The notes beneath the pieces are model-generated. The model did not search any database and was not told the origin of the DNA. It saw nothing but the letters and a program-made list of their open reading frames with translations. Positions 2,346 to 63,608 of a stretch of DNA of 64,000 nucleotides are shown piece after piece. Positions within the stretch are counted from its first letter, which is position 1. Each line of letters starts with the position of its first letter. Where the stretch lies: NCBI GenBank assembly GCA_043800755.1, contig JAZDMQ010000034.1:2656-66655 (forward strand), given 5' to 3'. This DNA comes from a bacterium. GTDB taxonomy: Bacteria > Methylomirabilota > Methylomirabilia > CAVQYV01. A program made the position numbers and the translations under genes.

Positions 2346-3121
2346 CTCCCCAATGAAGGCAATCTCCCCGGCTTCTGATTCGCCTTGGGGGGCTGGGGAA
2401 CCACCTCGGGATAGCCCCTGAGGTCTCCGGCCCCTCCCCCATGATTCTCCCGATAAAGTCGATTCTTGGCCACATAGGCGGCCACCGTGTCCGGCACCAG
2501 AAACCGAACGCTGCGCCCCTCTTCGACCAGTTGACGGATTTCAGTGGAGGAGATATCCAGGGAGACCACCTCCACCAGGAGGACCAGTCCTTTCCCAGGG
2601 GTCTTGATCTCCTCTTCAGAATCGATTTCCGAGATCTTGAGGTAGCGAAAACGCGGATTCCCCAGCTTTTCCAATTGTCTTGGCTTCAGAGACTTCTCCA
2701 CGTCGTCGAGGCGCCACCCGGGGCGGGCCGTGACAATGAACTGGACCGAGGTGAGAAGCTCTTTGGCATCCCTCCAGGTGGAGATCTCTAAGAAAGCATC
2801 CACCCCCACAATGAAATAGAGGACCGTATCCTTGCCATACATCTTCAGGAGCTCCTGCACCGTCTCTACCGAATACGATCTGCCCGGGCGATCGATCTCA
2901 ATCGAGGAGACCGAGAAGTAAGGGGTAAAAATGGTGGCTAGGGAGACCATCTCGTACCGGTGGAGGGCGGGGGCCACCTCGTTCTCATTCTTGTGCGGCG
3001 GGCAGGAGGAAGGGATGAAGATGATCTTGTCCAGATTGAAGGCCCAGTAGATCTCCTCCGCCGCCCGTAGATGACCTAAGTGAATGGGATCAAAAGTTCC
3101 CCCCATGATGCCGACGCGCAT
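2342..3121 (-). CDS. nadD: nicotinate-nucleotide adenylyltransferase
   Basis: MRVGIMGGTFDPIHLGH (HxGH nucleotidyltransferase motif), ...ISSTEIR. 4-nt overlap with rsfS. Confidence 0.8.
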   Translation of the reverse strand: MRVGIMGGTFDPIHLGHLRAAEEIYWAFNLDKIIFIPSSCPPHKNENEVAPALHRYEMVSLATIFTPYFSVSSIEIDRPGRSYSVETVQELLKMYGKDTVLYFIVGVDAFLEISTWRDAKELLTSVQFIVTARPGWRLDDVEKSLKPRQLEKLGNPRFRYLKISEIDSEEEIKTPGKGLVLLVEVVSLDISSTEIRQLVEEGRSVRFLVPDTVAAYVAKNRLYRENHGGGAGDLRGYPEVVPQPPKANQKPGRLPSLGR

Positions 3122-3309
3122 GCAACCTCCTTTTCTGGCCGAGCAGGTCCCTCCGCGAGCTATTCTGCTATATTAGCACAAAACGCGGCAGAAATGCACC
3201 AACAGGACTAATAGGCAACTGGCGCTGGGTTTGCCAGCCTACCCGTAGCGTTCCCGGCTCCCCAGGAAGCAAAGGGAAGTCTTCTTCCCCCGGGGCGAGG
3301 AGAGGGTCA

Positions 3310-4572
3310 TTACTGCGACCTTCGAACCTGCCCTTGTCCCAAGACGACAAACTTCGTGCAAGTCAATTCCCGCAGTCCCATGGGCCCCCGGGCATGCAAC
3401 TTCTGGGTGCTGATCCCGATCTCTGCCCCCATGCCGAACTCTCCTCCATCGGCAAACCGGGTGGAGGCATTGACAAAGACCGAGGACGCGTCCACCTCCT
3501 GCAGGAACCTCATGGCCCGGGAATAATTCTCGGTGATGATGGCCTCGGCCAGGCCAGAGCCATGGCGGGCAATATGATCCAGTGCCTCCTCCATATCCGC
3601 CACCACCCGAACCGAGAGGATGAGATCCAGGTATTCCGTATTCCAATCTTCCTCCGAGGCCTTCTTCATGGAGGGCCAGAGGGCGAGGGATTTGGGGCAT
3701 CCGCGCAGCTCGACACCGGCTTGCTCCAGTTGAGCGGCCACGGCGGGAAGAAAAGTGGGGGCAATCTTCTCGTGAATAAGGAGTGTTTCCATAGCATTGC
3801 AGACTCCGGGCCGCTCCACCTTGGCGTTGAAGGCAATCTCCTCCGCCATGGCCGGTTTGGCATCCTCATCCACATAGATATGGCAAAGTCCCTTTTCGTG
3901 CCGAATCACCGGGATCTGAGAATTCTCCACCACGAAGCGAATCAGTTCAGGTCCCCCCCGGGGGATAAGGACATCAATGAGCTGGGGAAGTCGAAGCAGC
4001 TCTAAGACGGCCGCTCGATTTGGGTTTTCCACCAAGCTGATGCAGTGTTCGGGGAGATCTGCCCGCGAGGCTTCCCTGACCAGAGTCTGGGCAATGGCCA
4101 TGTTCGAGGAGAGCGCCTCCTTCCCTCCCCGCAAGATGACCGCGTTGCCCGCCTTGAGGCAAAGCCCAGCGGCATCAGCGGTCACCGAGGGGCGGGATTC
4201 GTAAATCACCCCCACGACCCCCAAAGGCACGCGCATGCGTCCCACCCTCAGGCCATTGGGACGGACCTCCATGCCCGTCACCTCTCCCACTGGATCAGGC
4301 AATCCGGCGATCTGCTCCAACGTATTCGCCATCGCCCGGATCCGTTCGGAATTTAAGGTCAGCCGGTCCAGGAAGGCACCGGTGTAGCCAGCTCCCTCGG
4401 CTGCCTTCAGATCCTGACGGTTGGCCTTCTTGATGACATCCTCTTCCGCCAGCAAGGCCCTGGCCATTCCCTTCAAGGCTCGATTCTTCTGGTCAGAGGA
4501 AGATCTGGCCAGCCGCCTCGAGGCCGATTTAGCGCCCTCCGCCTTCTTTCTCACCTCCTGGGCTAGGGTCAA
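3310..4572 (-). CDS. proA: gamma-glutamyl phosphate reductase
   Basis: 420 aa, aldehyde-dehydrogenase fold with the ProA pattern (VIYESRPSVTADAAGLCLKAGNAVILRGG...). Overlaps proB stop by 4 nt. Confidence 0.9.
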   Translation of the reverse strand: MTLAQEVRKKAEGAKSASRRLARSSSDQKNRALKGMARALLAEEDVIKKANRQDLKAAEGAGYTGAFLDRLTLNSERIRAMANTLEQIAGLPDPVGEVTGMEVRPNGLRVGRMRVPLGVVGVIYESRPSVTADAAGLCLKAGNAVILRGGKEALSSNMAIAQTLVREASRADLPEHCISLVENPNRAAVLELLRLPQLIDVLIPRGGPELIRFVVENSQIPVIRHEKGLCHIYVDEDAKPAMAEEIAFNAKVERPGVCNAMETLLIHEKIAPTFLPAVAAQLEQAGVELRGCPKSLALWPSMKKASEEDWNTEYLDLILSVRVVADMEEALDHIARHGSGLAEAIITENYSRAMRFLQEVDASSVFVNASTRFADGGEFGMGAEIGISTQKLHARGPMGLRELTCTKFVVLGQGQVRRSQ

Positions 4573-5732
4573 ATTCTCCTCTCCATGAGCGCTAGATTGT
4601 CGCGATGGATGACCTCATCCGAATGTTTATACCCCAAGACCTTCTCAATCTGGCCGCTGCGACAGCCCTTGATGCGATTGACCTCCTCAATCCCGTAATT
4701 GACCAGGCCTTTGGCAAACTCCAGCCTCTCTTCGTCCAGGAGGGTCACCACATCACCCGCTCGGAAATCCCCCCAGGCGTCCAGGATGCCTGAGGGAAGT
4801 AGGCTCTTCCCCTTCCGGATCAGGGCGGATTTGGCCCCGTTGTCCACGGCGATCATCCCCTGGGAGTGGGTGGCGAAGGCCAACCAACGCTTCCGGCTTG
4901 CCATCCGGTCCGGCTCCGGCAGAAACAGGGTGCCCACAGCCTTGCCCGTCATGATCTGTCCCAGGATCCCCTCCACCCTCCCGTTGGCCACAATGGTTGG
5001 AATGCCGGAGGAGGTGGCCACCTTCGCGGCCAGGAGCTTGGAATTCATCCCACCCACCCCCATTCCGCTGCTCGAATCCTTCGCCCACAGCTTAATATCC
5101 GATGTGATCTCCGGGACCAGGGAGATGAGACGGGCGCGTCGACTCTTTCGGGGGTCGGCGGTAAAGAGGCCGTCCATATCGGTAAGGATGATGAGGAGAT
5201 CGGCGTCCACCAGATTAGCCACCAGGGCTGAGATCTGGTCGTTGTCTCCAAACCGGATCTCCTCTACCGCCACCGTATCATTCTCGTTGACAATGGGGAT
5301 TACCCCCAGGTGGAGCAGGGAGATGAGGGTATTGCGGGCGTTCAAATAACGAGAGCGATCTCGCACATCGTCCTGGGTGAGGAGCACCTGGGCTACCATC
5401 TGCCCTTGAAACTGAAAGGCCTCCTGATAAGCCCACATCAAACGACTCTGGCCGATGGCCGCGGCGGCTTGCTTGGAGGGAATATCCTTGGGCCTTTCCT
5501 TCCACTTGAGCTGGCTCAACCCCGCCAGAATCGCACCGGAAGAGACCAGTATCACCTCCAGACCCTTCTCTCTCAGGGAGGATAGCTCGGAGGCCAGATG
5601 GTGAATGCGGCAGGGATCTAAACGGGATTGCCCGGAGGAGAGCACGCTGGAGCCCACCTTGACCACTAATCTCCCGGTGGACCGGGCGATGTCCAATCTG
5701 GACTGGGTCTTTTCAGGTGCGTTGGCGTGCAT
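4569..5732 (-). CDS. proB: glutamate 5-kinase with C-terminal PUA domain
   Basis: RLVVKVGSSVL..., amino-acid kinase fold plus a PUA-like C-terminus. Start taken at the internal Met (MHANAPEK) that minimises overlap with obg. Longest ORF extends to 5807. Confidence 0.8.
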   Translation of the reverse strand: MHANAPEKTQSRLDIARSTGRLVVKVGSSVLSSGQSRLDPCRIHHLASELSSLREKGLEVILVSSGAILAGLSQLKWKERPKDIPSKQAAAAIGQSRLMWAYQEAFQFQGQMVAQVLLTQDDVRDRSRYLNARNTLISLLHLGVIPIVNENDTVAVEEIRFGDNDQISALVANLVDADLLIILTDMDGLFTADPRKSRRARLISLVPEITSDIKLWAKDSSSGMGVGGMNSKLLAAKVATSSGIPTIVANGRVEGILGQIMTGKAVGTLFLPEPDRMASRKRWLAFATHSQGMIAVDNGAKSALIRKGKSLLPSGILDAWGDFRAGDVVTLLDEERLEFAKGLVNYGIEEVNRIKGCRSGQIEKVLGYKHSDEVIHRDNLALMERRI

Positions 5733-55689: not shown

Positions 55690-57174
55690 TTACATCTTTC
55701 CCCCAATGACCAGATAGAGGTAGGCAAGGCTCATCAGCACATAGGAGGCGGTGCAGAGGTACATGATGACCTTGTTGATCGGGTGGGGCTGGACCCACTG
55801 GGGGAAGGCCTTGGGCACCAGGTAGTAGTTCAGGTAGATCAGCCCCGGGGCGAAGATCGACATGGCCAGGAAGGAGCAGACGCCCCGAATGATCAGGAGG
55901 GCTCCAGGCTGGGCCAGCGCCATGGTGAAGATGGTGGATACGGAAAAGGTGGCCACAAAGATGTAGTACCAGGTGCGGAAGTGATATTTGCGGGCCGGCT
56001 TGATATTGGAATAGACGAAATCGGCCCATACCCGGGAGAACCCATCCGTGAGCTGCAGCCAGGCATCGCACAAGAAGGCGGCAGCGACCACCAGAAACAA
56101 GGCCCTCCCGACCCTGCCCCAGGCCACTTCAAAGAAGGCCGACTGCACCACCGCGATCTCCCAGCCCTTCGGGACCTTGTGCTCCGGCAGCAGCAGAGCC
56201 CAGGCCAGCCAGCACATGATTACCGTGGTCAGGGTATTGAGAAAGACCCCAATGAAGTTCTCGCTGGCGATGTAGCGCACCCAACCCTTATACTGCTTCT
56301 TGTTTTCCTCCGTGTCCTTGAACGCATAGCCCGTAGCAGGGATGGCCTCTTCCTCCCCGGTGATGGGGCTGGTCACCCGACCAATGAGCTTGCCCATGCC
56401 CGCCCCCTTATCTCTCATCCAGTAGCCAATGAAGAGCTGGCCAAACCCTCCGGCTCCGGCATAGGCGATGCAGGTGACCAAGATCCCCAAATCCTTAGGA
56501 TCCCAGTTGCTGGGCCTGGAGAAATGGGGAAGCAGAGCAGGAAGGAAGTGGGAGGCGGCTGAATAGACCTTCGGTTGGAACAGGGCGGCGGTGATGCCCC
56601 CGATGGTAATCAGCACGATGAGGCTGGAGAATTTCTCCACTACCGTGTAGACCACCCGGCCGAAGGTGAGGGCGATGATATAGACACTGATGGTGAGATA
56701 GCCCCAGAACAGGGCCCTGCCACCAGGACTCCATCCCGCAGGAAATTGAGTCAAGGATCCCAGGGCGGTCCCTCCTGCGCTGGCGTAGGCCCCAAACCAG
56801 ATATTCTCAATGAAGATCCCGATGAAGATCACGATGGCGTACCATCTTCCGATCCGGGTGAAGCCGGTCATGGCGGTCTCACCGGTGAGGATGGCGTAGC
56901 GCATAATCTCCAGGTTGATCCAGTACTGCAACATGGAGGCGGGGATGAGGATCCCCAGGAAGGCTGCCCCATACTTGGCGGTCATGTAAGGCCACCAGAT
57001 GAGCTCTCCGCTCCCCTGGGCCATGGCTGCCCAGATGAGCCCGGGTCCTATGTAAGCGAATATGCCCATAAAGGTAGGCAGGATCGCCAGCTTCAGGGGC
57101 TCCATTTTTCCCATGGGGACCTCGCCCCCGATGAGGCCTTGATTCGCATGCACCGGCTTCTTCTCCTCTGCCAT
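55690..57174 (-). CDS. Nramp-family membrane transporter, non-canonical (DPGN motif replaced by GPGL)
   Basis: 494 aa, ~11 TM. IFAYIGPGLIWAAMAQGSGELIWWPYMTAKYG aligns to the Nramp AYIDPGN...LLWV region. LEIMRYAILTGE aligns to the second Nramp motif. Confidence 0.5.
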   Translation of the reverse strand: MAEEKKPVHANQGLIGGEVPMGKMEPLKLAILPTFMGIFAYIGPGLIWAAMAQGSGELIWWPYMTAKYGAAFLGILIPASMLQYWINLEIMRYAILTGETAMTGFTRIGRWYAIVIFIGIFIENIWFGAYASAGGTALGSLTQFPAGWSPGGRALFWGYLTISVYIIALTFGRVVYTVVEKFSSLIVLITIGGITAALFQPKVYSAASHFLPALLPHFSRPSNWDPKDLGILVTCIAYAGAGGFGQLFIGYWMRDKGAGMGKLIGRVTSPITGEEEAIPATGYAFKDTEENKKQYKGWVRYIASENFIGVFLNTLTTVIMCWLAWALLLPEHKVPKGWEIAVVQSAFFEVAWGRVGRALFLVVAAAFLCDAWLQLTDGFSRVWADFVYSNIKPARKYHFRTWYYIFVATFSVSTIFTMALAQPGALLIIRGVCSFLAMSIFAPGLIYLNYYLVPKAFPQWVQPHPINKVIMYLCTASYVLMSLAYLYLVIGGKM

Positions 57175-57462: not shown

Positions 57463-57945
57463 TCAACGGGGAATCACATTGAATCCAGTATTCGAGATGA
57501 GTCCGGAATAGGTCTTCTTGAACTTCTTCCACAGGGCCCGCATATTCTTGTACCTCTGCAGCCAGGTGAGGAACAACAGGTCGAGGGCCGCGCTATCCGT
57601 CCAGATGACATCCTTCTTGTAGCCGGCGATCATGGAAACCCGGGTAGAATCCAGGAAGTTGGCAATCCGCTCCCTATCCGTATCGATGGTGCTGCAGGTG
57701 CCAAAATGGACCACCCAGTTTGCAAATCCTCTTCCCATGAAGCCCGCCAGGGTCTCGAGGTCAATCGAGCCCTCATCCAATTGAATCTCTCCCGGACTGC
57801 CATGGAAGGCAAAATAGAGGATCCCATAGCCCGATCGGCGCTTGATCTTGACCAGGTTATAGCGAAGCTCCTCCTTGGTATTGCAGGATAAAAGGATCAG
57901 CTTCACCTCGTTGAGCTTGGAGACCAGCTCCATGATCGGTCCCAT
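57463..57945 (-). CDS. hypothetical small protein with caspase/CHAT-like His-Gly ... Cys dyad
   Basis: ORF 57463..58119. Probable start at internal ATG 57945 (MGPIMELV). Motifs ILYFAFHGSPG and VVHFGTCST resemble the catalytic His and Cys strands of caspase-fold peptidases. No other similarity recognised. Confidence 0.3.
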   Translation of the reverse strand: MGPIMELVSKLNEVKLILLSCNTKEELRYNLVKIKRRSGYGILYFAFHGSPGEIQLDEGSIDLETLAGFMGRGFANWVVHFGTCSTIDTDRERIANFLDSTRVSMIAGYKKDVIWTDSAALDLLFLTWLQRYKNMRALWKKFKKTYSGLISNTGFNVIPR

Positions 57946-58382
57946 GCTCAGCCGCCGATGGCTCTCCAGGTCTTGGTCCCAAAGCGACTCCAGGCAGATG
58001 ATACTTTTCTTTTTTTGCTTGGCCAGCCTCAATTGGCAACGCCCCCTCTCTCGATTGCAGATACAAAGGGCCCCTATCGGGCACCCCTGAAGCAAATGCC
58101 CCCTTCTGCCTCCGCCCAACCCCTGGACTTATCTTGACAAATTCCCTCGCTTCCGGTATGGAAGATCCTGTTTGTACCTCCTTCCGGTGAGGCCAAGAAA
58201 AGGTGCGGCCCTTCTTTCTCATAAGTATAGGCCAAGCGCCTCATAATTTCAATCCCATTAGATAGGGGGGGGTCATCCTGTATAAACCTGCCCAGATCTC
58301 GACCTGCTGTCCCCAATGCGGCGGAGAACTGAATTTTGATGAGGGCTCCAATGCCGTCCAGTGCCGGTTTTGCGGAAGCGCA

Positions 58383-59753
58383 TTGCTGGCCACGGGATAT
58401 GGTCGCATCTTGAGCTATTCCCTTGCCTCCAACCTGAAGGCGGAGGAGGTGCGAAGAGCGGCCCTGGGACGGCTGACCTCCCGAGGACAGAAGAACGACA
58501 TTCGGGGGATTCGCCTCGCCTTCGTCCCCTTCTATCGGCTGACCGGCCTCGATTTCTCCTGGAGTTGGAAAGACAAGGAGATCACCTCCCCCTTGTTGGA
58601 GACCCCTCACGCCAGCAACGCGGCCCTGGGGATCCTCCGCTTCGGGGAGGAGGCCTTGAAAAACCCCAACGGCGGACCCCTTCCCCCCCTCAAGGAGAAG
58701 GAATATCTCCTCACCTCAATCTACCTGGATCGCACCTTCCTGGCCGCGGACTTGCCCTCCCTGAGCCTCCGCTCCTTAGGGGTGCGCTCCCAGGTGCGCA
58801 CCCTTCATCTCTTCGATCCGGAAGCGCTATCGCGAGAAGGACAAGTGATCCCGGTGACCATGGACTGGAAGGAGGCCTGGAATCGCATAGAAACGGGCCT
58901 GCCCCTCGAAAACCTGACCCGGCGGCTGCTCATCAACCGGATCCTCTCCTTGGTCTTCTTCCCTCTATGGGAGGTTCAGGTCGATTCCGGGGCAAGGACC
59001 TCCTCCCTCCTCTTCGACGGCGTCGCCCGGTCTTTTCTCCAAGAGGAGGCGGCCTCTCGCTTCTTTTCGGAGTCTCCGGCCGGCAGCGGCTTCTCCGCCC
59101 AAACCCTGCGCTTCCGACCCCTGGCTTGCCCGAACTGCGGCGGAGGCCTCCCCGTGGATCGGGACTTTCGCCTCTTCTCCTGTCCCACCTGTCATCGGCT
59201 CTGGCATATCAAGGGGGACGAATTCGAAAATCTCCCCTACCGCCTGGCGGAGGCGCCCAAGAGGCTCGATCCGCGCCAGGTGCATTATCTACCCTTCTGG
59301 ATCTTCCTGGGACAGGTCCACCTCGAAGGAAGAACCATTGCCAGCAAATATGACCTCGCTCAGCTCGCTCCCCAGGCGCGTCTCCTGCGTGAGGAGGATA
59401 AGGCGATCCCGCTCCGCTTCTTCGTCCCGGCCTTCAAGGTCCGGGACCTTTCAGTGGCCAATCGCCTCTCCACCTCCTTCACCCGCATGCAGCCGCTCTT
59501 CCAAGTCAAGGAGCCCAGCGGGGAATCGCTCCATCCTGGCGGGGTCCTGGATCGAGATGAGGCAGCCACCTTCGCCCACCTTTCCCTGGTCTCCATCACC
59601 CCCAAGGGAAATCCCAAGCTGGTGGAGCGAGTGGCTCAAGCTGAGCTCACCCTCTCCCCGGGCGAGCTGGTCTTCTTTCCCTTTCAAGATCATCTGGATT
59701 CGCTGCGGGAGGACTTCCTCGGCACCGCGATCCACAAAGCGACGCTCCGTTAG
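58383..59753 (+). CDS. hypothetical protein with two zinc-ribbon-headed repeated modules (true start probably upstream, non-canonical)
   Basis: Track ORF from TTG 58383. In-frame upstream codons encode CPQCGGELNFDEGSNAVQCRFCGS with no ATG/GTG/TTG before it. A second ribbon, CPNCGGGLPVDRDFRLFSCPTCH, occurs mid-protein. The two halves share motifs. Confidence 0.4.
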   Translation: MLATGYGRILSYSLASNLKAEEVRRAALGRLTSRGQKNDIRGIRLAFVPFYRLTGLDFSWSWKDKEITSPLLETPHASNAALGILRFGEEALKNPNGGPLPPLKEKEYLLTSIYLDRTFLAADLPSLSLRSLGVRSQVRTLHLFDPEALSREGQVIPVTMDWKEAWNRIETGLPLENLTRRLLINRILSLVFFPLWEVQVDSGARTSSLLFDGVARSFLQEEAASRFFSESPAGSGFSAQTLRFRPLACPNCGGGLPVDRDFRLFSCPTCHRLWHIKGDEFENLPYRLAEAPKRLDPRQVHYLPFWIFLGQVHLEGRTIASKYDLAQLAPQARLLREEDKAIPLRFFVPAFKVRDLSVANRLSTSFTRMQPLFQVKEPSGESLHPGGVLDRDEAATFAHLSLVSITPKGNPKLVERVAQAELTLSPGELVFFPFQDHLDSLREDFLGTAIHKATLR

Positions 59754-59760
59754 GGGTCCA

Positions 59761-60255
59761 ATGAGGATTCATTTTCAATCCCTAAGATCGGAAAAGGATG
59801 GGCCGGCGGGCCTGGTGCTCGGTTGTCTTTTGATTGGCCTGCTCGGTCTGGCGGCCGGACTGGGCTTCAATTCCCTGCGGTCCTCCCCCCTGCCCTTAAT
59901 CCCCCCTTTTCTCCTCGCCTCCCCCTACCCGGAGGCCGGACCGGATCAGGCGCAGGAATGGGCCGAGGAGGGCAGGGTCCTCTTTCTGGACAGTCGTCCT
60001 CATGCGCAATACAAGAAGGCCCATCTGCCCCAGGCGGTGAGCCTCCCGGTGAAGGACTTTCCTGCCCTCTATCCGGTGCTCAGTCCGCTCTTCCCTGCAG
60101 AGGGATGGATCGTCATTTACGGGGAGGGCGGAGGGTGGCCCACGGAGAGGGAACTGGCCCATCTCTTCCGGAAGGCGGGGATGGAGAGGGTCAAGGTGTT
60201 GGCCGGGGGGTTCCGTGCCTGGAAGGAGAGGGGCTTTCGAGTGGAGGGGAGATAG
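59761..60255 (+). CDS. membrane-anchored rhodanese-homology-domain protein lacking the catalytic Cys
   Basis: ATG at 59761. N-terminal TM LVLGCLLIGLLGLAAG. Rhodanese fold (VLFLDSRPHAQYKKAHLPQAVSLP...AGGFRAWKERG) with IVIYGEGGGWPT where the Cys loop is expected. Confidence 0.6.
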   Translation: MRIHFQSLRSEKDGPAGLVLGCLLIGLLGLAAGLGFNSLRSSPLPLIPPFLLASPYPEAGPDQAQEWAEEGRVLFLDSRPHAQYKKAHLPQAVSLPVKDFPALYPVLSPLFPAEGWIVIYGEGGGWPTERELAHLFRKAGMERVKVLAGGFRAWKERGFRVEGR

Positions 60256-60258
60256 AGG

Positions 60259-60762
60259 ATGAATCAAGGCCGGCCTGATTCCTGGCGCAGAAGAATACTC
60301 CACTTTTTGAAAAGCCCCTACCTGGCTGCGCTACTGCGGATCATCCTGGGCGCCCTTTTCCTCGAGGCGAGCTGGGATAAGATCCTGCATCCGGCTCGAT
60401 TTGCCGAGGATGTGGCCAACTACGCTATCCTCCCCCCTTTGTTGGTCAACTTGTGGGCCCTCGTCCTCCCCTGGCTGGAGATGATCGCCGGCCTCTCTCT
60501 CATCCTGGGCCTCCTCTCCCGGAGCAGCGCCCTGGTCCTCTCTGCCCTCCTGGTCAGCTTCATCATTGGCATCTCCATCAATATCGCCCGAGGGGCGGAG
60601 ATCGACTGCGGCTGTTTTGGCGCCGGGGAAGAGCTCGGCTGGATCAGCCTATTCCGGGATCTCCTGTTCCTAGCCATGGGGATCCAGATCCTCTTCTGCG
60701 ATCGGGGCTTCCTGGGATTGGATTCTCTGTGGAGAAAACGGGGGGTGGAAAAGGAGGGGTAG
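60259..60762 (+). CDS. DoxX/MauE-family membrane protein
   Basis: 167 aa, four TM. ILGALFLEASWDKILHP...WLEMIAGLSLILGLL. CGCFG motif typical of MauE/DoxX-like proteins. Confidence 0.65.
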   Translation: MNQGRPDSWRRRILHFLKSPYLAALLRIILGALFLEASWDKILHPARFAEDVANYAILPPLLVNLWALVLPWLEMIAGLSLILGLLSRSSALVLSALLVSFIIGISINIARGAEIDCGCFGAGEELGWISLFRDLLFLAMGIQILFCDRGFLGLDSLWRKRGVEKEG

Positions 60763-60862
60763 AAAAGGGATTGCTTTGGGGTCGGTTTTGTGTTTTGCTC
60801 ATTGGATCCAGGATGGGATTTCTGGCAAGGGATTTTCGACGATAGCAAAGGAGGGATGGGTC

Positions 60863-61441
60863 ATGGCGAAACAGGTCCCCTGGGAAACCATTATAGAGGT
60901 CGCCTTGGACCGAAGCACCAAGGAACAGAAGCCGATCTTCGTTGATTTCTGGTTCGATGGCTGAATTGGCTGCAAATTTATGAATACGGATTCGTATTCA
61001 CAGGACAAGGTGGTCGGTTTCTTGGTGGAGAACTTCATCCCCGTCCGCAGCCAGTGCTTCTTTGACCACTTTACGGCGATGATGCGGCGGTATCAGGTGA
61101 AATGGACCCCGACCTTCGTGGTCCTGGATCCGGACGGAAGGGAGCACCACCGGGTGGTGGGATTCCTCCCGCCCGAGGACTTCATGGCCCAGTTGCAGTT
61201 GGGAAAGGCCAAGCTCTACTACGATCAGGATCGGCTAGACAAGGCCGCTTCCGAGCTCCAGATCGTAATTGACCGCTTTCCCCAGACGGCGGCCGCGGAG
61301 GAGGCCATCTTCCTCCTGGGCGTCTCCGGCTACAAGCGTACCCATCAGGCCGGGGAATTGAAAAAGGCTTGGGAGAGGCTCTCCCGGGATTATCCCGCGA
61401 GCGAGTGGAGCAAGAGGGCCCGGCCCTATTCGGCCCTGTAG
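60863..61441 (+). CDS. thioredoxin-fold (Thioredoxin_7/DsbD-gamma-like) protein with in-frame UGA at 60962 (candidate selenocysteine, UxxC motif) and a C-terminal TPR-like region
   Basis: Track ORFs 60776..60964 and 60980..61441 are in the same frame, separated only by TGA. Read-through gives KPIFVDFWFDG-U-IGCKFMNTDSYSQDKVVGFLVENFIPV, aligning to KPvlVDFtADWCgWCK...F.dpeV...L...FV.v. The UGA sits at the first Cys of CxxC. AAGGAGGG RBS before ATG 60863. Confidence 0.55.
60981..61000 (+). promoter_or_regulatory. SECIS-like hairpin downstream of the in-frame UGA
   Basis: UGAAUACG-GAUU-CGUAUUCA, an 8-bp stem with apical loop GAUU (G at loop position 1). Begins 17 nt after the UGA, apical loop ~25 nt after, within the range reported for bacterial SECIS elements. 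Confidence 0.35.
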
Positions 61442-61571: not shown

Positions 61572-63608
61572 TTACGCCCCTGAGATCTGCCCCTCCTGGC
61601 CCACCCCCACCTCTTCGATGCGCAGGCTGACCTCCTCCCATTCCCGGTACAGGGTGCGGATGCGATCTTCTAACTCCTCCTTCTCCCCAACCGCCGCTTT
61701 GGCCCTCTCCCCCTCCCGATAGAGCTCAGGCTGCGACAGGGCCTCCATGACTTCACTCATCCGGGCCTCCCGGGAGCGAATCTCCTGTTCGATTTCGCTG
61801 AGCTTCTCCCGGAGGGGCAAGAGCATCCTGCTCCGCTTCTGCCTCTCCTCTGCCTCTCTCCTCTTCTCCTCCTTGCTCTTGCGTCGGCCAGGGGCAGCGC
61901 CAGCTCCGGCAGCAGAGGCCTCTTCCGACAGCTTGACCCCGGGGCTGGCATCGGGCGGCCAGGTCTCTCGCTGCCTCCGCTCCTCCTCCTCGACCTTCTC
62001 CCAATAGTAGTCGTAGTCTCCCAGGAACTCCCGTATCTTCCCCGCCTTGACCTCAACCACCTTGTTGGCGATGCGATTGATGAAATAGCGGTCATGGGAG
62101 ATGAAGACCATCGTCCCCTCCCAAGCGGAAAGGGCTTCTTCCAGCACTTCACGGGCATCCAGGTCCAGGTGGTTGGTTGGCTCATCCAGGAGCAGGAAGT
62201 TCACCGGCTTGAGCAGCATACGCGTCAGGGCCAGACGGCTCTTTTCCCCGCCGGAGAGCACCGAGACCTTCTTTTCCACCTCCTCCCCCGAGAAGAGGAA
62301 GGCCCCTAAGATGGCACGGAGTCGAGGCTGCATCTCGAAATCCGCCACCTCCGCCAATTCCTCCAGCACGGTGTGGCCGGAGTGAAGTGCCTCCAACTGG
62401 TGCTGGGCGTAATAGAAGAGGGAGACCTGGGTGCCCAGGGCTCGCTGCCCCTTTTCGAAGGGAAGCACCCCGGCCAGGATCTTAACCAGGGTGCTCTTCC
62501 CAGCCCCATTCGGCCCCACCAGGGCGACCCGATCGCCCCGGGTGAGCTGAAAGTCGAGGCCGGAATAGACAACATTCTCTCCATAGGACTTGCGCACGCC
62601 GGAGAGATGGGCTACATGGAGTCCACTGCGCGGAGGGGTGGGGAATCTCAGGTTTAGGCTGCGGGTGGCCCTGCGCTCGACGGTCGCCTTCGGCATCTTC
62701 TCCAACATCTTGATCCGGCTCTGGACCTGGCTGGACTTGGTATTTTTCGCCCGGAACCGCTCGATGAAGCGCTCCACTTGTTCGATGCGCCGTTCCTGGT
62801 TGCGCATCGCCGCCTCCTGCAACCTCTGTCGTTCCTCCCTTTGGACACAATACTGATCATAATTTCCCGAATAAAGGGTCAGCGATCCGGCTTCCAGGGC
62901 CGCAATCCGGCTCACCATCCGATTTAACAGGTAGCGATCGTGGGAGACCAGGACATAAGTCCCCTCGTAGTTGCAGAGGAAATCCTCCAGCCACCGGATC
63001 GCCTCCAGGTCCAAATGGTTGGTCGGCTCATCCAGGAGCAGGTAATCGGGCCGAGTCAGGAGGAGGCGCGCCAGGGCCACCCGCATCTGCCAGCCACCAG
63101 AGAGCTCCCGAAGCGATCCGCGGATTTCTCGCTCGCCGAACCCCAGTCCGGTCAGGATGGATCGAGCCCGAGACTCCAGGCTGTACCCGCCCTTCGCCTC
63201 ATATTCCTGCTGCATGGCCCCGTAGCGGCCCAGCATCGCCTTCCACTCCGGGTCATCCTCCTGCACCTTTCCCCTGCCGGCGGCCTCCTCCATTTGATTG
63301 CGCAGCCACTCCAGCTCCTCTCCCAGGCGAGGCACCTCCTCGAAGCCCGCCATCACGAAGGAAAGCACCTGATCGCCCTCCAGGGTCTCGATCTCCTGGG
63401 GCAGGTAGCCCAATCGAGCCCCCCGGGAGCGGTGGATCTCACCCTCGTCGATCCCCTCCTGCCCCAAGATGATGCGGAAGAGGGTGGTCTTCCCCGCCCC
63501 ATTGGGCCCCACCAGACCTATCTGCTCCCCCTTCCTGATCTGCCAGGAAAGATTGCGAAAGAGGTACTTGCCTGCAAATTGCTTGGAGATCGATTTCAGG
63601 TCAATCAT
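61572..63608 (-). CDS. ABC-F family ATPase (two ABC domains, no TM domains)
   Basis: 678 aa. Two Walker A motifs (GPNGAGKTT, GPNGAGKST), two LSGG signatures, inter-domain linker and a charged coiled-coil C-terminal extension. Confidence 0.85.
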   Translation of the reverse strand: MIDLKSISKQFAGKYLFRNLSWQIRKGEQIGLVGPNGAGKTTLFRIILGQEGIDEGEIHRSRGARLGYLPQEIETLEGDQVLSFVMAGFEEVPRLGEELEWLRNQMEEAAGRGKVQEDDPEWKAMLGRYGAMQQEYEAKGGYSLESRARSILTGLGFGEREIRGSLRELSGGWQMRVALARLLLTRPDYLLLDEPTNHLDLEAIRWLEDFLCNYEGTYVLVSHDRYLLNRMVSRIAALEAGSLTLYSGNYDQYCVQREERQRLQEAAMRNQERRIEQVERFIERFRAKNTKSSQVQSRIKMLEKMPKATVERRATRSLNLRFPTPPRSGLHVAHLSGVRKSYGENVVYSGLDFQLTRGDRVALVGPNGAGKSTLVKILAGVLPFEKGQRALGTQVSLFYYAQHQLEALHSGHTVLEELAEVADFEMQPRLRAILGAFLFSGEEVEKKVSVLSGGEKSRLALTRMLLKPVNFLLLDEPTNHLDLDAREVLEEALSAWEGTMVFISHDRYFINRIANKVVEVKAGKIREFLGDYDYYWEKVEEEERRQRETWPPDASPGVKLSEEASAAGAGAAPGRRKSKEEKRREAEERQKRSRMLLPLREKLSEIEQEIRSREARMSEVMEALSQPELYREGERAKAAVGEKEELEDRIRTLYREWEEVSLRIEEVGVGQEGQISGA

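Follow-up and report, generated by a model that had tools for sequence, protein, structure and literature searches.

A Cys-less variant of a conserved rhodanese-MauE gene pair beside a new member of a known selenoprotein class in a Methylomirabilota genome

The stretch of DNA analyzed here (hereafter the window) covers 64,000 nt of contig JAZDMQ010000034.1 (assembly GCA_043800755.1) from a bacterium of the NC10 lineage, Methylomirabilota. Open reading frame (ORF) calls revealed four plus-strand genes in a row, coding for a 456-aa zinc-ribbon protein (58383..59753), a 164-aa membrane-anchored rhodanese homology domain protein (59761..60255), a 167-aa four-helix membrane protein of the MauE/DoxX family (60259..60762), and a 192-aa selenoprotein with a DsbDγ-like thioredoxin (Trx) fold and a TPR-like part (60863..61441). 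On the minus strand, a divergent gene for a DUF6642 protein (57463-58119) precedes the cluster and a convergent gene for an ABC-F ATPase (61572-63608) follows it. A sequence-only reading had described the three genes at 59761-61441 as a single module of a rhodanese without its active-site Cys, a DoxX/MauE protein with a CGCFG motif, and a selenocysteine (Sec)-containing Trx-fold protein, with 3 and 100 nt between them. The gene positions, both gaps (60256-60258 and 60763-60862), and the description of each gene held, and the elements are not there by chance since each one is conserved in homologues. The module itself held only in part, as co-conservation was found for the rhodanese-MauE pair alone and not for the Trx gene. 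The locus is a Cys-less variant of a conserved, previously undescribed rhodanese-MauE pair, and the Trx is a new member of a known selenoprotein class.

The rhodanese was identified by Pfam (PF00581; E 1.6e-14, 54.6 bits versus a cut-off of 22.2) and by structure prediction. In the AlphaFold2 model (pLDDT 77), residues 15-37 form a transmembrane (TM) helix and the fold is that of a rhodanese, with residues 121-126 as the loop joining the central strand (116-120) to helix 127-138. The top Foldseek matches were rhodaneses (E 1.6e-8), including 3tp9, 3nhv, Alr3790, and YgaP. The active-site loop, G121-E-G-G-G-W-P-T (60121..60144), reads WIVIYGEGGGWPT, and HMMER alignment to PDB 3tp9 set Gly121 opposite the catalytic Cys (“viyGeGGg” versus “cvyCrtGGrs”). 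The Cys that opens the loop of active sulfurtransferases (CxxGxR[ST]) is absent, and the only Cys of the protein, C22, lies inside the TM helix. Inactive rhodanese domains are known from Anabaena Alr3790 (2kl3/3ilm, “YGAG”), the second-closest PDB relative and likewise a Y-G Cys-less rhodanese, and from the docking domains of mitogen-activated protein kinase (MAPK) phosphatases. These share the fold and the replaced Cys with the window protein, but none is known to be membrane-anchored and in an operon with MauE, and the YGEGxGRPTE motif is specific to the NC10 clade. From its signal-anchor-like n-region, the rhodanese domain is probably periplasmic.

The Cys-less loop is conserved. IVIYGEG was invariant in 14 homologues of 53-96% identity, and the alignment held 49 invariant columns, including the new YGEG...PTE motif. 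The loop of the clade is G-E-G-x-G-R-P-T-E and retains a Gly-rich cradle, with Arg at position 6 in the 13 aligned database homologues and the related loci read; the window has Trp at this site. This Trp126 is encoded by TGG at 60136-60138 and is replaced by Arg even in a 96%-identical homologue, while the near-identical metagenome locus L096 probably also has Trp (dN≈0). The ratio of nonsynonymous to synonymous substitution rates (dN/dS), at saturated dS, was 0.20-0.32 for the rhodanese and 0.11-0.34 for MauE; the Cys-less gene is thus kept by selection, and the idea of a rhodanese pseudogene was ruled out by these values. The Cys-less form was limited to the NC10 clade (the window, L007, L008/L016, and L096-L102) and L035. 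Among 1.84 billion cluster representatives, only one further 50%-identity cluster was found at E<1e-30, with the next matches falling to 83 bits. The nearest rhodanese outside NC10 was that of L035 (35% identity, reciprocal best, also “YGEG”). The L035 locus (2689-5685), from an uncultured bacterium, encodes in order an exported DsbA-like protein (CPSC), the Cys-less rhodanese (YGEGEDLERAR), MauE, and a TlpA/Redoxin-like lipoprotein (CPHC). Separately, Cys-less rhodanese domains (“VVYGRxxSRxYD”) were observed at the C-terminus of proteins P0154, P0195, P0207, P0237, and P0272, which have ~500-600 aa, a single TM helix, and a long N-terminal part that by eye only looks both cytoplasmic and coiled-coil/GAF-like; by their sequences these proteins may be sensors with the inactive rhodanese as extracytoplasmic domain.

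The gene 3 nt downstream of the rhodanese encodes a MauE protein, with Pfam matches to MauE (PF07291; 2.6e-28, 99.3 bits versus 27), DoxX (2e-09), and weakly DoxD. The CGCFG motif (C117-G121; 60607..60621) lies in the loop between TM3 and TM4, where it is the predicted periplasmic active site. Together with K41 in TM1 and E74 in TM2 it was invariant across 20 homologues of 30-69% identity; the C-terminal Cys146 was not conserved. The protein therefore carries the features that define the family, namely the Pfam match, CXC-F-G between TM3 and TM4, the Lys in TM1, and the Glu in TM2. As proposed in 2026, MauE ranks second in frequency among the bacterial enzymes that generate disulfides; its active site is a periplasmic CXC between TM3 and TM4, followed by F-G, with the conserved Lys (TM1) and Glu (TM2) close to a docked quinone (bioRxiv 10.64898/2026.03.05.709764). 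The MauE proteins of Caldithrix and Desulfatibacillum substitute for DsbB in Escherichia coli motility and PhoA activity, act on DsbA-dependent protein substrates, and lose complementation when either Cys of the CXC is mutated in the two homologues (bioRxiv 10.64898/2026.03.05.709764). By analogy, the window MauE is probably a DsbB-like, quinone-linked disulfide generator, and like those proteins it is not tied to mauA. It differs in its surroundings, as the neighbor is of rhodanese fold rather than a DsbA- or MauD-type thioredoxin, this partner has no Cys in its soluble domain, and the window Trx, unlike MauD and DsbA, has no export signal. A MauE/MauD methylamine cluster is not present either, given a Trx without signal peptide or anchor and no mau gene among the scanned neighbors.

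A census of MauE loci, with one genome per species, a 7-sequence MauE alignment as query, and ORFs searched with purpose-built hidden Markov models, displayed the rhodanese-MauE pair as a widespread arrangement. Of 80 species-level loci, 57, drawn from more than 10 phyla, had a same-strand rhodanese ORF directly before MauE, and the two genes commonly overlapped by 4 nt. The earlier suggestion that a DoxX/MauE-type membrane protein teams with a rhodanese was thereby strongly supported. In 55 loci the upstream rhodanese had a [YF]C-x-G-x-x-C-x-x-S loop and in two it was Cys-less (L016 from NC10, and L035); 16 loci had no rhodanese but an adjoining DsbA-like CPxC gene, and seven had neither (one at a contig edge, and L060 a fusion). 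The Cys-x4-Cys (CX4C) loci came from Armatimonadota, Ignavibacteria, Calditrichota, Acidobacteriota, Zixibacteria, Dehalococcoidia, Bacteroidota, Latescibacteria, and Geobacter/Desulfobacterota. Single-locus look-ups also placed a rhodanese directly upstream of MauE in L008 (NC10), L011 (Gemmatimonadota), L012 (Geobacter), L014 (Geothrix), and L015 (Myxococcales). In the library of papers searched, none was found that pairs MauE or DoxX with a rhodanese, and rhodanese is unmentioned in the MauE preprint (bioRxiv 10.64898/2026.03.05.709764).

The MauE-linked CX4C rhodanese was defined operationally by an N-terminal TM anchor, a position directly upstream of MauE, and a [YF]CxGxxC loop. Its second Cys occupies loop position 6, the site of Arg in the canonical CxxGxR. 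The window gene has the anchor and the position and lacks the loop; it is a derived form, without the Cys, of the CX4C rhodanese usually encoded ahead of MauE. The DsbA-like gene lay directly downstream of MauE in 15 loci, a block of mostly Actinomycetota-labelled metagenome-assembled genomes (MAGs) and isolates, and upstream in L071. Its alternation with DsbA in MauE loci suggests that the CX4C rhodanese may be the usual redox partner of MauE, and this shared genomic position suggests that it is probably a direct dithiol/disulfide partner of the enzyme. In the L067-L095 block the DsbA-like CPxC partner was membrane-anchored and, in this sample, mutually exclusive with the CX4C rhodanese. Other arrangements were also observed. 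In the Dehalococcoidia locus L024 (2544-3992), MauE is preceded by a tandem pair of rhodanese genes whose loops read YCDGGDC and YCAPGC, and in L060 (3974-5557) from Kiritimatiellae, MauE continues through a fifth hydrophobic stretch into a CTYC-bearing Thioredoxin_7 domain, a natural fusion analogous to VKOR-Trx. In the Gemmatimonadota locus L010/L011 (227-5489) a CX4C rhodanese-MauE pair closes a co-directional cluster of genes for an extracytoplasmic function (ECF) sigma factor, an anti-sigma factor (zf-HC2), CcdA (DsbD_TM), a TlpA-like redoxin, and two DUF1573 proteins.

A precedent for such a loop is provided by TsoB (NF045694), a selenoprotein whose single chain joins a UxxxxU rhodanese with the membrane domain of DsbD and a Trx domain (PMC13188914). 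Like the loci described here, it brings together a rhodanese whose chalcogen pair is spaced 1-6, a thiol-disulfide module in the membrane, a DsbDγ-like Trx, and the use of Sec, and the CX4C spacing of the MauE-operon rhodaneses equals that of UxxxxU. The precedent shows such pairs of a rhodanese loop at work in membrane thiol-disulfide relays. The genes do not belong to the TsoB family, as the model yielded only domain-level matches (49.8 bits for the window Trx and 33-35 bits for CX4C rhodaneses of other loci, versus a cut-off of 805). They also differ in having MauE rather than DsbD, separate genes, a window rhodanese without Cys or Sec, and Sec in the CxxC position of the Trx rather than in the rhodanese.

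In the fourth gene, an in-frame TGA at 60962-60964 gives DFWFDG-U-IGC when read as Sec. With U read as Cys, the protein matched Thioredoxin_2 (6e-12), weakly Thioredoxin_7/DUF255, and YfiO/TPR_6 at its C-terminus, and DsbDγ structures matched residues 20-112 (E 3e-7), U falling opposite the first Cys of CVAC. All 14 database homologues were annotated as fragments of 150-153 aa starting just past the TGA, and read-through gave U-I-G-C in L001 (44% identity), L005 (40%), and L007 (81%). A metagenome scan of the family returned 80 loci, of which 78 were readable; TGA was kept within DF[WFY].{2,3}-U-[ILVA]-G-C in all 78, none of which had a Cys codon at this position. A SECIS-like hairpin (UGAAUACG-GAUU-CGUAUUCA; 60981..61000) starts 17 nt past the UGA. 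Hairpins of 8 bp were found 17-19 nt past the UGA in four diverged homologues, with L007, L001, and L005 having theirs at the same place and one A-U to G-C compensatory change; the z-score was only -1.9 and the region is also coding. An Rfam scan of 57-64 kb gave chance-level matches only and no SECIS family, a tRNA scan of the 64-kb window found no tRNA and hence no tRNA-Sec support, and the protein reached no NCBIfam selenoprotein cut-off. With UGA at the redox Cys site and homology on both sides, the Trx gene is, as read from these alignments, a genuine selenoprotein gene. Methylomirabilota MAGs have been reported to be unusually rich in selenoproteins.

UxxC proteins of PF13098, annotated as thiol:disulfide interchange proteins, are a known kind of selenoprotein (PMC13188914). 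The window protein resembles them in its Thioredoxin_2 domain with UxxC and a candidate SECIS-like hairpin after the UGA. Its family differs by a C-terminal TPR/YfiO-like domain, by the lack of a Cys form in the sample, and by the lack of a signal peptide or N-terminal hydrophobic segment in all 78 readable loci. The window, L001, and L007 proteins likewise have no signal peptide; the distant homologue in L005 (5812-6462; 40% identity) has a clear one. A strong Shine-Dalgarno-like sequence, AAAGGAGGG (60847..60855), lies 8 nt ahead of ATG 60863 and supports this short start of the window gene, with which there is no room for a signal peptide; the in-frame stretch upstream contained no hydrophobic segment. 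A frameshifted remnant of a signal peptide upstream of the gene was considered and dropped, the hydrophobic stretch occurring out of frame only. The Trx is probably a cytoplasmic, free-standing redox protein, as predicted from its N-terminus.

Taken together, the locus is best explained, with moderate confidence, as a two-gene rhodanese-MauE unit in which the NC10 rhodanese is a redox-inactive accessory and the Sec-containing Trx an independent cytoplasmic neighbor. The conserved functional unit would be an operon of a single-pass membrane-anchored rhodanese domain protein followed by MauE. From the two homologues studied in E. coli, the periplasmic CGC loop of MauE with Lys41 and Glu74 would pass electrons to quinone and make disulfides as DsbB does, and in most phyla the CX4C rhodanese takes the genomic place that the DsbA-like protein has in actinobacterial MauE operons. 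In the NC10 lineage both Cys were lost, giving G-E-G-x-G-R/W-P-T under persisting purifying selection. The Cys-less rhodanese, probably a redox-dead accessory, could serve a still-active MauE as a scaffold, as a regulator, or by binding anions, and MauE would then oxidize another partner encoded elsewhere. No DsbA- or TlpA-like gene was found elsewhere in the 64-kb window. A more far-reaching version, offered tentatively, is that CX4C membrane rhodaneses are an unrecognized class of MauE partner that replaces DsbA in the MauE disulfide pathway of many phyla without DsbB and VKOR, and that the window is a rewired version with a redox-dead scaffold. Under this wider proposal MauE must use another carrier because the rhodanese is redox-dead; the adjoining Sec-thioredoxin or the conserved 456-aa zinc-ribbon protein are conceivable candidates.

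Several observations weigh against the two-gene explanation. The functional link between rhodanese and MauE is an inference, and both MauE proteins studied in E. coli were active there in the absence of their native neighbors. Trx-fold partners of MauE occur elsewhere, as in the L060 fusion, the DsbA-/TlpA-like neighbors in L035, and the Trx-superfamily fusions that make up 8.2% of MauE proteins (bioRxiv 10.64898/2026.03.05.709764), and L035, with its Trx-fold neighbors, is the only other locus with a Cys-less rhodanese. Neither promoter nor terminator was detected in a scan of the 100-nt gap between MauE and Trx, so that the two genes may be co-transcribed. Positive-inside counts for the rhodanese anchor favored a cytoplasmic N-terminus in 27 sequences versus 19, which is not decisive.

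The 456-aa gene is the basis of the alternative that has survived best, which is nevertheless unlikely. In this alternative the unit would comprise the zinc-ribbon protein, the Cys-less rhodanese, and MauE and have another function, for instance in sensing or in maturing a particular substrate, with the rhodanese as ligand-binding or docking domain. The 456-aa protein has a central CPNC...CPTC zinc ribbon, and its gene ends 7 nt before the rhodanese start. In every NC10-clade locus, the Trx-less L008/L016 among them, a homologue directly precedes the rhodanese gene, at 4-7 nt spacing or overlap (4-nt overlap in L008), which makes the gene a candidate extra member of a lineage-specific operon. 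A binding role for the rhodanese would fit the Gly-rich cradle of the Cys-less loop and its Arg at position 6 in the 13 aligned database homologues, the docking function of inactive rhodaneses in MAPK phosphatases (Foldseek matches 2ouc and 3tg1), and the placement of other Cys-less TM-anchored rhodaneses at the end of ~580-aa proteins that look like sensors (judged by eye, unscanned). However, the 456-aa protein matched nothing in Pfam, NCBIfam, PADLOC, or PDB and has no predicted TM segment, so that no mechanism can be proposed, and MauE keeps all residues tied to DsbB-like activity. Further out, a 494-aa polytopic membrane protein without Pfam family (55690-57174, minus strand) was conserved near the cluster in L007 and L008, and the DUF6642 protein in L007 only.

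Slightly less credible is the original proposal in its functional form, in which the Cys-less rhodanese, MauE, and the Sec-containing Trx would be one membrane thiol-oxidoreductase system and the Trx would supply the lost redox pair. The three genes are co-directional and closely spaced with no terminator detected, synteny is retained in L007, L096, L097, L100, L101, and L102, and the window Trx is similar to both DsbDγ and the TsoB Trx domain. MauE is paired or fused with Trx-fold proteins elsewhere, and L035, whose rhodanese is the closest outside NC10, has DsbA-like and TlpA-like genes on either side of its rhodanese-MauE pair. The comparison of gene neighborhoods upheld the rhodanese-MauE part of the proposal, but on the Trx side only the five closest of the 80 loci (at least 82% identity) adjoin MauE and rhodanese, leaving more than 70 loci of the family without either gene, and on the MauE side no locus beyond the clade of the window has this Trx. 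The sister NC10 locus L008/L016 has rhodanese-MauE followed by GlnE and no Trx. Instead, 19 Trx loci of a 43-55%-identity clade (L103-L175) lie directly downstream of a methylmalonyl-CoA-mutase-like gene, and other homologues adjoin FKBP, or radical-SAM and M20 peptidase genes. The 19 loci also have a biotin-carboxylase-like gene further upstream of the mutase-like gene. The predicted sides of the membrane differ as well, as the Trx starts at a strong Shine-Dalgarno-ATG and has no signal peptide and the CXC loop of MauE is periplasmic, and Cys146 of MauE is not conserved. That Trx lies next to MauE probably reflects a recent arrangement confined to this lineage and no coupling of function.

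A role in sulfur handling was also weighed, rhodaneses being classical carriers of sulfur. As in the DoxX-SseA or DoxDA/TQO pattern, the rhodanese would bring in thiosulfate or sulfane sulfur, and electrons would reach quinone through the membrane protein. The window MauE also matches DoxX and weakly DoxD, and DoxX, SseA, and SodA form a membrane oxidoreductase complex in Mycobacterium tuberculosis, the comparison made in the sequence-only reading. What stands of that comparison is the association of a DoxX-clan integral membrane protein with a rhodanese-type protein; it is otherwise a loose analogy, and DsbB-like MauE, MauE/MauD, and TsoB are closer. SseA is soluble and Cys-active, whereas the window rhodanese is Cys-less and membrane-anchored; DoxX proper (PF07681) lacks the CXC-FG motif, whereas the best family of the window protein is MauE; and no SodA was found among the scanned window neighbors. 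Sulfur handling is improbable, as a periplasmic rhodanese domain without Cys could carry no persulfide, the partner elsewhere is interchangeable with DsbA and not with sulfur enzymes, no sulfur-oxidation genes were seen among the scanned neighbors, and MauE homologues act on DsbA-dependent protein substrates. Least probable is that the Cys-less rhodanese is a decaying, functionless relic, to which the loss of both active-site Cys and the tiny family would point, since dN/dS is similar to that of MauE, the 49 invariant columns include the loop motif, and the intact ORF is tightly coupled to MauE in all clade members.

For the wider family, the CX4C rhodanese is a concrete candidate where a DsbA-like component is missing, as in Geobacter, Acidobacteriota, Ignavibacteria, and further groups. 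The Cys-less variant of NC10 is a natural “active-site knockout” that could part a structural from a redox role of the rhodanese. The Trx-TPR family, with TGA in 78 of 78 readable loci and no Cys form in the sample, bears on why Sec is retained. The main interest of the locus is the family-wide alternation of CX4C rhodanese and DsbA beside MauE.

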